Positions 24,595 through 27,500 are shown, counted from the stretch's first letter. The stretch: 64,000 bases of DNA from an uncultured Gammaproteobacteria bacterium (GCA_964496095.1 CAZBWU010000004.1:21366-85365); one strand, 5' to 3'. Notes: generated from the sequence alone by a model not told the origin. Made by a program: numbers and translations.

Positions 24595-27500
24595 GCTTTA
24601 GTCGTGCGCAATTAAATAAGGGCGTATGGTGAATGCCTTGACACTAAAAGACGAAGAAGGACGTTGCAGGGTGCGATAAGCCTCGGCGAGCTCCCAAGCT
24701 AGCTTTGACCCGAGGATGTCCGAATGGGGAAACCCTCCTAACTATGTTAGGAATCATATACTGAATTCATAGGTGTATGAAGAAGACCTGGCGAAGTGAA
24801 ACATCTCAGTAGCCAGAGGAAAATAAATCGAAGAGATTCCCCCAGTAGTGGCGAGCGAAAAGGGAAAAGCCTAAACCATGTAAATGTTTTTGTAGTAATA
24901 TGTTGGTCTTCGGATTAACGTTGAACTGCGATTTAAAGGACAGACCGTTGTTTATATGGGGTAATAAGACAGTAATGCCGACTTTCTGTATGTCGGGTAG
25001 AAACTTGATTTTTAGTAAAATGTTCTGGAAAGAACAACCAAAGGAGGTAATAGTCCTGTATACGAAAAAAATCAAGCTATATGGTTATTGTTCTTGAGTA
25101 GGACGAAACTCGTGAAATTTCGTCTGAATTCAGGCCGACTATGGTCTAAGGCTAAATACTTTTAGTGATCGATAGTGGACAAGTACCACGAGGGAAAGGT
25201 GAAAAGTAGCCCGGAGAGGGCGATGAAATAGTATCTGAAACCGTGCGCCTACAAAGAGCGGGAGTCTTATGTCGCAAGACATGGATGACCGTGTTCCTAT
25301 TGAAGAATGAGCCTGCGAGTATGTTGTGTGTCGCAATGCTTAAGCCCCTTTGGGGTGGAGGCGCAGCGAAAGCGAGTCTTAACGGGCGTTAAGTGGCACG
25401 CATATAACCCGAAACCGGGTGAGCTATCCATGGCCAGGATGAACCTTTTAGAAATAAAAGGGGAGGTCCGAACTCACGAGCTGTGCAACACTCGGAGATG
25501 AGTTGTGGATGGGAGAGAAATTCTAATCGAACTCGGTAATAGCTGGTTTTCCTCGAAATATATCTAGGTATAGCCTTAAGTGTTCCTGCTGGTGGTAGAG
25601 CACTGGATGAGAATTGGGTCCTTCGGGATACCGTTTTTAATCAAACTCCGAATACCAGTAGCCAAAACTTAGGAGTCAGGCAGTGGGGGCTAAGCTTCAT
25701 TGCCAAAAGGGGAACAGCCCAGATCGCTAGCTAAGGTCCCTAAATCCATATTAAGTGTAACGAAGGTGGTTTTAATTCTCTAACAACCAGGAGGTTTGCT
25801 TAGAAGCAGCAATCCTTTAAAGAAAGCGTAACAGCTCACTGGTCAAGAGTTTTAGCGCCGAAAATGTACGGGACTAAAATATGGTACCGAAGCTGCGAAC
25901 TTTATTACTCCTTCGGGAGTAGTAATTTGGTAGAGGAATGTTCCTTGCGCGCTGAAGCCGCAGACGTGAGTCACGGTGGAGTGCAAGGAAGTAAGAATGC
26001 AGGCATAAGTAGCAAAAAGGCAGGTGTGAATCCTGCCCGCCGAAAATCCGAGGTTTCCTGGGCAACGAGAATCGCCCCAGGGTTAGTCGGTCCTAAGGCC
26101 AGGCCGAAAGGCGTAACCGATGGAAGAGCTGGTTAATATTCCAGCACTGTGTATAGTTTGATTTTTATTGCACATCTTTAAGCTTATAGCGTATTTTGGT
26201 TATATACGTATCGCAAGATGAAGACAAAGCCTTCGGGTGGAGTCAACTATAGGTCACGAGGTGTCTAGAAAAGGTAGAAATCGTTAAGCTATACATAACC
26301 GTACCGGAAACCGACACAGGTGGATAGGTCGAGTAGACCAAGGCGTATGAGAGAACCCTCGTTAAGGAACTCTGCAATACAACGGCCGTAACTTCGGGAT
26401 AAGGCCTGCCCATAGCAATATGGGCTACAACAAAAGACCAGCTGCGACTGTTTACCAAAAACACAGCTCCCTGCTAAATCGTAAGATGATGTATAGGGGG
26501 TGATGCCTGGCCAGTGTCAGAACGTTAAGGGGAGAGGTTAATCGCAAGATGAAGCCTTGAGCCGAAGCGCTGATGAACGCCGGCGGTAACTATAACCGTC
26601 CTAAGGTTGTGGATTCAAGCAATTGAGTTCACTAGGATTGGGACGATTATAGCAAATAGTAAACAGTGACAAAAAATAATTACCATTGCAGATAATTAAT
26701 TTTTTAAAGCCATTTAAAAAAGCTGCCTTATTTTATAGCAATATAAAATATAATCCGATCATAGCTATATGCTGGAAAGCCGTCAAAAGCCAATCAGCAG
26801 GGAAGGCTCCGCTCAAGGCGGAGAACCCTCAGAGACTAAATGCTATGCCCCAGCCTCTCTCGAGAATCTGGGTGAAGATAGAGTCCATTGTAGAGGAATC
26901 AGTAAGCGAAATTCCTTGTCGGGTGAGTTCCGACCCGCACGAATGGCATAACGATAGCTGGACTGTCTCAACGAGGGACTCAGTGAAATTGCAAGGGAGG
27001 TGAAGATGCCTCCTACCCGCAACTAGACGAAAAGACCCCGTGAAGCTTTACTACAATTTGATATTGGTATAAGAATAAATATGTTGAGAGTAGGTGGGAG
27101 CCGCAAGGCGACGATGAGACACCACCCTTACTTGTTTTTATGCCTAATTTTCTGACATGAATCTGCCAGAGAAAACAGTGTCTGATGGGTAGTTTAACTG
27201 GGGCGGTTGCCTCCTAAAATGTAACGGAGGCGTTTACAAAGGTCAGCTTAGCTCGGATGGAAATCGAGCTGGACGCGCAAACGCAAAAGCTGGCTTTACT
27301 GCAAGAGCTACAACTCGAGCAGTTACGAAAGTAGAAGTTAGTGAACCGACCACCTCAAATAGGAGAGTGGAAGATCAACGGATAAAAGCTACTCCGGGGA
27401 TAACAGGCTGATCGGACCCGATAGTCCTTATAGACGGTCCGGTTTGGCACCTCGATGTCGGCTCATCGCATCCTGGGACTGAAGAAGGCCCCAAGGGTTT

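Follow-up and report, generated by a model that had tools for sequence, protein, structure and literature searches.

Group I introns inserted after position 1931 of the large-subunit (LSU) rRNA (L1931) have been described in Simkania negevensis, Thermotoga spp., Synechococcus C1/C9, green-algal chloroplasts and Acanthamoeba mitochondria, and the listed Simkania, Thermotoga and Synechococcus introns are 654-700 nt long, each with a single-motif LAGLIDADG endonuclease (PMC1995217). Such introns are therefore already known from bacteria and organelles alike, and the rRNA genes of the Candidate Phyla Radiation (CPR) are rich in them: 45% of 968 CPR 23S insertions were classed as group I, with site 1931 among the frequent sites listed (PMC11270868). 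A 23S intron of Coxiella burnetii that 'lacks the canonical omegaG', the guanosine at the intron terminus, is self-splicing according to the title of its report (Raghavan et al., 2007; PMC11270868; PMC5423948; PMC4990558 is cited on the splicing of the Coxiella 23S intron). Here we analyze a 64,000-nt stretch of DNA from an uncultured bacterium (GCA_964496095.1, CAZBWU010000004.1:21366-85365; hereafter the window), whose 23S rRNA gene is interrupted at L1931 by a 297-nt group I intron without a homing endonuclease. This basic call concerns a known sort of intron, one that is common in the host group; a conserved terminal A (omega-A) and an exon guide in two parts set it apart as a variant that deserves to be recorded. 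Comparison with its relatives leads us to propose, with a probability of roughly 70%, that this endonuclease-free intron after U1931 of a CPR 23S rRNA joins its exons despite ending in A.

The first-pass annotation of the window, made from the sequence alone, had proposed a group-I-like intron of about 297 nt that splits a contiguous domain IV sequence at the L1931-equivalent site and lacks a homing endonuclease, and each part of this call was borne out. The 23S exon 1, CCTAAGGT, finishes at 26607 (coordinates are those of the window) and exon 2, AGCGAAATTCC, begins at 26905, with 297 nt between them, and the bacterial LSU model aligns both sides of the site, leaving 298 nt unaligned as an insert. 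The Rfam Intron_gpI model (RF00028), with which the annotation had proposed to check its call, matches 26704-26906 over its full length (model positions 1-253) at 58.0 bits, above the gathering score of 50 (E 3.9e-12, computed for the whole 64-kb window). The P7/J7 motif on which the call had leaned, CAGAGACTAAATG, is present at 26830-26842; the segment described as P4-like, GCAGGGAAGGC, is present too (26797-26807), but consists of the 3' strand of P4 followed by the 5' strand of P6 rather than of P4 alone. The core matches dozens of other L1931 inserts at 75-87% identity over ~50 nt in blastn. The site falls between U1931 and A1932, in the conserved strand that runs from helix 69 to helix 71; the junction of the exons is CCUAAGGU/AGCG, and a precisely ligated product would read CCUAAGGU/AGCGAAAUUCC. 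We take L1931 to be the name of this site in conventional Escherichia coli numbering, anchored on pseudouridines 1911, 1915 and 1917 and on m5U1939; the raw count in one E. coli O157 rrl copy is 1925 of the 2898-nt annotated gene, 6 lower than 1931.

To place the intron among its relatives, we searched prokaryotic genomes, one for each species, for the exon sequence with a base other than A directly after it, and retrieved at least 120 loci. Exon 2 resumes within 4 kb in at least 101 of them, after inserts of 178-822 nt, and the P4-P7 core sequence of the window is common to almost all of these at least 101 inserts. Their hosts include uncultured Patescibacteria, Actinomycetota, Acidobacteriota and others, and L1931 introns are far commoner in uncultured bacteria than the list of 2007 (PMC1995217) conveys, in agreement with the later survey (PMC11270868). 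Two architectures recur: in type A the guide GCCUUAG lies a few bases from the 5' end, while type B introns, the window's included, start with a hairpin that is followed by a conserved GGAY-UGGGACNGUUAUAG.

We tested the helix model of the intron on a MAFFT alignment of 23 full-size type B introns, the homologues referred to below. Standard pairs are formed in 93.3% of cells; sliding the 3' partners by one to three columns lowers this to 36-45%. Of the 69 pairs, 36 are doubly changed, and none of 500 shuffles (0/500) reaches the observed values. Covariation is strong in the 5' hairpin (10/10 pairs), P2 (9/9), P3 (5/6), P8 (4/5) and P9.0 (3/3). The group I helices P3, P4, P6, P7 and P8 and the P3/P7 pseudoknot are all present, with compensatory changes in P3, P4, P7 and P8; the two pairs counted in P6 vary on one side only. 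In P7, the outer pair alternates between U-A and C-G (12 and 10 sequences), and the guanosine-binding pair G26834-C26885, beside the bulged A26833, is G-C in 23/23. The P5 of the window folds into 2 bp with an 8-nt loop, compared with stems of 5-7 bp capped by GNRA loops in relatives.

The end of the intron is set by its homologues: in all type B introns the P9.0 stem is followed by exactly one base and then by AGCG, and because their alignment places the terminal base, the 3' boundary lies between 26904 and 26905. The first-pass annotation had correctly noted that no G directly precedes exon 2 (...AATCAGTA/AGCG) and had left this boundary ambiguous; the ambiguity is gone, and A26904 stands at the usual position of omega-G. 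The base here is a G in L005, in L039, in L047 and in the short forms described below, and an A in the window, L060 and L112. Other placements were rejected. G26902 as omega would leave UA as a 2-nt insertion in universal rRNA and breaks both P10 and the alignment with relatives, and G26906, at which the Rfam alignment ends, would delete A1932-G1933 or require a 5' exon with ...UUG at its end. Insertion at L1926, hinted at by a U.G pair in the long exon helix of the minimum-free-energy fold, lacks the AAGGU repeat at the 3' end that it calls for. Insertion at L1933 with a terminal G fits only an L141-like subgroup whose introns start with AG (the window's starts with UG), fails for most other introns and would lose the U.G wobble at the 5' splice site.

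Omega-A is conserved well beyond the window. The closest relatives, L133 and L139, come from other samples, have 23S sequences ~96% identical to that of the window and carry a 293-nt intron ending in CAAUA/AGCG; omega-A is also found in nine contigs with 23S ~84-88% identical and in many others at 77-82%. A metagenome scan, restricted by design to A-ending L1931 introns that have the P7' motif, gave 99 matches, 58 of them with both boundaries on the contig, and the pocket pair is G-C in all 44 omega-A introns that could be parsed. The P9.0 stem next to the terminal A exists in compensated variants (UUCG/CGAA, UUGG/CCAA, UAGG/CCUA, UGCG/CGCA, UCCG/CGGA and AUUG/CAAU). In twelve distinct A-ending introns longer than 500 nt, an open reading frame (ORF) of 120 aa or more has been kept in which the LAGLIDADG motif GF(V/T)DGEG occurs, a family assignment confirmed for the omega-A intron L112 (LAGLIDADG_1, E 1e-19). 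The genome scan, in which the terminal base was not prescribed, has 13 of 101 inserts without G before A1932 among the matches listed (A in 7, U in 4, C in 2). On this comparative evidence omega-A persists together with mobility genes that are intact and with a ribozyme core that is held by structural selection, and a stable trait of a large L1931 sub-lineage would be its best explanation. Four Actinomycetota introns that lack a terminal G (L002, L014, L071 and L099; ~750-800 nt) have no ORF of at least 100 aa left and are probably decaying elements.

The annotation had also called the insert AT-rich, which is true of its 5' third, a part outside the Rfam model; this third is nevertheless not filler, as a hairpin within it covaries and two conserved elements of it form pairs. 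It is structured, and the 4-bp P1 guide is extended by a conserved 14-nt element, paired with 23S positions 1914-1927 in a helix that we call PX. Pairing in PX is kept in 94% of cells among the 23 homologues, and its sole variable exon base, position 1921, covaries with its intron partner (C-G in 13, G-U in 7 and G-C in 2 of the homologues, and U-A in L026). P1 pairs UAAGGU with GCCUUA (26725-30), is 98.9% paired and includes the wobble U26607.G26725, which is U.G in 23/23, in keeping with the terminal U of the 5' exon that the annotation had pointed out. The candidate P10 strand GCU lies directly 5' of the P1 strand; both strands of P10 are invariant, so this helix cannot covary. The second conserved element, PY, occurs as GGAC/GUCC in 38 homologues, as GGAU/AUCC in 6 (window included) and as GGGC/GCCC and GGAU/GUCU in one each. 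A pattern recount found its 3' strand at a constant distance after P2 in the homologues, and PY was undercounted in the covariation test because MAFFT had displaced that strand by one column. No conserved pairing was found in the A-rich linker (26653..26721) in the alignment of the 23 type B introns. As a separate observation, the exon sequence CCUAAG (26600-26605), which we take to be one strand of the classical 11-nt GAAA-tetraloop receptor, adjoins the splice site, and the intron 5' hairpin and P2 both have GCAA loops; this may be coincidence.

The longest ORF of the insert encodes 105 aa from a TTG start (26686-27003) and continues into exon 2. Neither it nor a 60-aa ORF, the only ORFs of the insert, has a Pfam match, which agrees with the annotation's statement that the longest ORF is free of endonuclease features. 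In relatives L039, L112, L081 and L042 an ORF is carried in the P6 loop, with LAGLIDADG_1 matches in L039 (E 2e-24) and L112 (E 1e-19); where these two hold their genes, the window has a 7-bp hairpin. The LAGLIDADG gene of the P6 loop would have been lost from the window intron or never have been present in it, and since there is no endonuclease gene, we propose that this copy is inherited rather than actively homing.

We envisage that folding of the precursor gives the usual catalytic core (P3-P8, including the P3/P7 pseudoknot) and that a two-part guide holds the 5' exon: a P1 of 4-6 bp that would present the U1931.G wobble, and the 14-bp PX, which would block formation of rRNA helix 69 until the intron is excised. 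Because all first-step elements are canonical, free guanosine bound at the intact G-C site of P7 is expected to attack after U1931. The 3' splice site would be placed by P9.0, which ends one base before the junction, together with the 3-bp P10, and the exons would then be joined. In the second step A would occupy, or bypass, a pocket built for G; it seems likeliest to us that P9.0 and P10, along with a 5' exon that is held firmly, position the junction so well that an A can serve even if its binding is poor, and a protonated A+.G-C triple is chemically possible.

Several points weigh against this proposal. Model introns need their terminal G for exon ligation. In the window intron A should bind poorly, because the pocket is still G-C. 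P5 has ~2 bp in the window and 6 bp in L133 and the closest relatives, which could mean early decay of this copy. Excision and ligation of the window intron are deduced from sequence, and the metagenome scan, because it was built for A-ending introns only, does not yield the frequency of omega-A relative to omega-G. Finally, the Simkania L1931 intron is unspliced by the title of Everett et al. (1999; cited in PMC11270868). The mismatch between an A at omega and a G-C pocket, the weak P5 and the Simkania title would fit an element that is group I by descent but defective in the second step, so that the insert is retained in the mature 23S rRNA or the rRNA is fragmented; in the latter variant the 5' site would be cleaved without ligation and host RNases would trim the remainder, and bacteria with intervening sequences do tolerate fragmented 23S rRNA (PMC4990558). 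We regard such a defect as unlikely, though by some distance the most serious of the alternatives. Compensatory change has preserved the whole core, P9.0 and the helices that bind the exon in hosts with 23S sequences up to ~23% apart, which is not expected of a dead ribozyme, and omega-A introns coexist with intact homing endonuclease genes. In a retained intron, moreover, PX would tie up the 3' strand of helix 69, so that retention should be harmful, and the site lies at the subunit interface.

Two further explanations carry much less weight than a second-step defect. That the true end is G and the terminal A an assembly or sequencing error is very improbable: the window does come from the assembly of an uncultured organism, yet the same A is found in the independent assemblies L133 and L139 from other samples, in 58 further contigs and in the GTDB genomes L060 and L112, and this recurrence in independent assemblies and many diverged contigs argues that omega-A is neither an assembly error nor a private lesion. 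Least probable of all, to the point that we give it hardly any credence, is that the insert is not an intron but an rRNA expansion segment or an RNase III-type intervening sequence. The AT-rich 5' third outside the Rfam model could be read in that way, but the covariance-model match above its threshold and the covariation of the helices in the group I core already contradict this reading. LAGLIDADG genes are also carried by homologous inserts, and the insert splits a universally conserved single-stranded stretch and caps no helix. The specific form of an RNase III-processed stem-loop replacing the tip of helix 25 or 45 was rejected, as the insert lies between helices 69 and 71 and has a group I core fold. 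Splicing with a terminal A remains our preferred reading of the window intron.

The scans also brought to light related forms. Eleven mini type B introns of 178-254 nt (L026, L065, L076, L088, L066, L020, L016, L025, L046, L062 and L154), from Patescibacteria metagenome-assembled genomes (MAGs) and metagenome contigs, keep the 5' hairpin, PX, PY, P1, P2, P3, P7, P8 and P9.0 and are without the entire P4-P5-P6 domain. Their helices are 91% paired, compared with ~38% when slid, with 19 pairs doubly changed, and U1931-A replaces the U.G wobble in 11/11. One of them, L065, scores only 11.8 bits (E 1.5) with Rfam Intron_gpI; Rfam-based surveys of CPR rRNA undercount introns because forms without P4-P6 escape the model. 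In three U-ending type B introns (L009, L042 and L081; 588-822 nt) the pocket pair is changed from G-C to A-U on both sides (CAGAAACC / GAGUUC), and the LAGLIDADG ORFs of L042 and L081 are intact. It looks as if pocket and omega had switched in a coordinated way, to a U.A-U triple; if they did, a cofactor other than G is predicted for the A-U pocket group. The window intron itself is a mosaic relative to L133 (468-792, minus strand) and L139: its first 168 bases are 100% identical to theirs, while the 23S is only ~96% identical, and the P5, P6a and P8 hairpins have wholly different sequences. Within the window P5, CCGUCAAAA is similar to the 5' half of the L133 P8 hairpin. The mosaic relation suggests exchange of intron segments or replacement of hairpins.

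The window (~39% G+C) is a gene-dense piece of a bacterial chromosome; its rRNA genes and the elements of the intron are collected in Table 1. No 16S rRNA gene was found in the 64-kb window by the Rfam scan. Its polynucleotide phosphorylase (PNPase; 17112-19325) is 88% identical to proteins labelled Candidatus Magasanikbacteria, with the next-best matches labelled Patescibacteria; by these matches the host is an uncultured CPR bacterium, and we place it, on protein similarity, in the Patescibacteria near Candidatus Magasanikbacteria. Logan contigs with the PNPase of the window end before the 23S gene and so give no second view of the intron in the same organism. A perfect sigma-70 consensus promoter (TTGACA, 17 nt, TATAAT; 12/12) lies at 24122-24150, ~455 nt upstream of the 23S gene, and after it, inside the 23S leader, a G+C-rich hairpin is followed by a T run (24315-24340). 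Small ORFs at 13626-14105 and nearby, upstream of rpsO and pnp, match T4SS_pilin (PF18895) in precomputed Pfam results for the identical Logan contig L220.

Table 1. Elements of the L1931 intron, its flanking exon strands and the rRNA genes of the window.
Feature	Position	Strand	Remarks
23S rRNA gene (intron host)	24606..27833	+	Rfam LSU_rRNA_bacteria, 2411 bits
PX, 5' exon strand (23S 1914-1927; 3' half of helix 69 and beyond)	26590..26603	+	pairs with 26639-26652
P1, 5' exon strand AGGU	26604..26607	+	U26607 is U1931; U.G wobble at 5' splice site
Intron, 297 nt	26608..26904	+	rRNA alignment and >100 homologous L1931 inserts
5' hairpin GUGGAUUCAA-GCAA-UUGAGUUCAC	26609..26632	+	directly past splice site; 10/10 pairs doubly changed, 97% paired
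PY, 5' strand GGAU	26635..26638	+	pairs with AUCC 26753-26756, just past P2
PX, intron strand UGGGACGAUUAUAG	26639..26652	+	14-nt exon-binding element; conserved
A-rich linker in P1 loop	26653..26721	+	length and sequence variable among relatives
Internal guide: GCU (P10 strand), then GCCU (P1 strand)	26722..26728	+	GCUGCCU conserved in full-size relatives
P2 hairpin UAUUUUAUA-GCAA-UAUAAAAUA	26729..26750	+	9/9 pairs doubly changed
P3, 5' strand CAUAGC	26760..26765	+	pairs with 26842-26847; 5/6 pairs doubly changed; 98.5% paired
P4 (UGCUGG/UCAGCA) around very weak P5	26770..26799	+	P4 segments 96.7-100% paired
P6 and short capping hairpin CUCCGC-UCAAG-GCGGAG	26800..26827	+	place of LAGLIDADG gene in relatives
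P7, 5' strand GAGACU	26832..26837	+	pairs with 26882-26886; bulged A and G of guanosine-binding pair
P8 hairpin	26849..26872	+	4/5 pairs doubly changed
P9.0 hairpin AUUG...CAGU, 4-bp stem	26887..26903	+	adjoins last intron base; 3/3 counted pairs doubly changed
Omega position: A, not canonical G	26904..26904	+	aligns with terminal G of L005, L039, L076 and terminal A of L133, L139, L060, L112
P10, exon strand AGC (A1932-C1934)	26905..26907	+	complementary to GCU 26722-24
5S rRNA gene, downstream of 23S	27945-28051		Rfam 5S, 80.6 bits

Group I chemistry is taught with an obligatory omega-G. To our knowledge only one natural exception has been recognized, that of Coxiella, where the replacement is reportedly an A; the exception described here is shared, as a conserved trait, by dozens of diverged introns. 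Some of these have homing endonuclease genes that are intact, and the remainder of the ribozyme is maintained by compensatory change. We advance more tentatively, at slightly less than an even chance, that the window intron belongs to a large, long-lived L1931 lineage that splices with a terminal A and a normal G-C pocket. If this is true, recognition of the 3' splice site would have moved away from the omega base and on to the helices beside it, namely P9.0, P10 and the long guide for the exon, and the sister group of L009, L042 and L081 would have gone further, to an A-U pocket and omega-U. The 'universal' rule of omega-G and G pocket would then be evolvable in nature, with a non-guanosine cofactor predicted for the A-U group. 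The three combinations, omega-G or omega-A with a G-C pocket and omega-U with an A-U pocket, form a natural series for the study of site choice in the second step. PX, lying over helix 69, is a candidate means of keeping the exons unfolded until splicing and may also serve in recognition of the site during reverse splicing.

With the known L1931 introns, the window intron shares its site after U1931, its kind of ribozyme and its core sequence, and this core resembles that of type A L1931 inserts such as the one in the Chlamydiae MAG L074. It differs from the listed bacterial ones in its length of 297 nt and its lack of an endonuclease ORF. Its guide lies 118 nt downstream, preceded by a hairpin and by an additional element that binds the exon, whereas that of the retrieved type A inserts is near the 5' end; it ends in A, and these type A inserts, which are not the published introns, mostly end in G. 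Work on CPR rRNA insertions (Brown et al., 2015; Tsurumaki et al., 2024, PMC11270868) concerns the same host group; the 2024 survey used the same Rfam model, but contains no analysis of splice-site bases or intron architecture, and the words 'splice site' and 'guanosine' are absent from it. The LSU intron of Tetrahymena thermophila (L1925) has in common with the window intron the P7/J7 motif, the bulged A and G-C pair, the U.G wobble and P10, the last of these a candidate helix in the window intron; it differs in lying six bases upstream, in its large P5abc, in its terminal G and in a P1 that is a simple hairpin. The Tetrahymena helix that competes with P1, P(-1), is formed between rRNA and rRNA and not, as PX would be, between intron and exon. 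Cbu.L1917 and Cbu.L1951 of Coxiella are, like the window's, group I introns of a bacterial 23S rRNA, and one of the two is without omega-G by the title of its report; these sit at sites 1917 and 1951 in a single species, whereas the omega-A introns described here form a large and diverse set at L1931, spread over many uncultured lineages.

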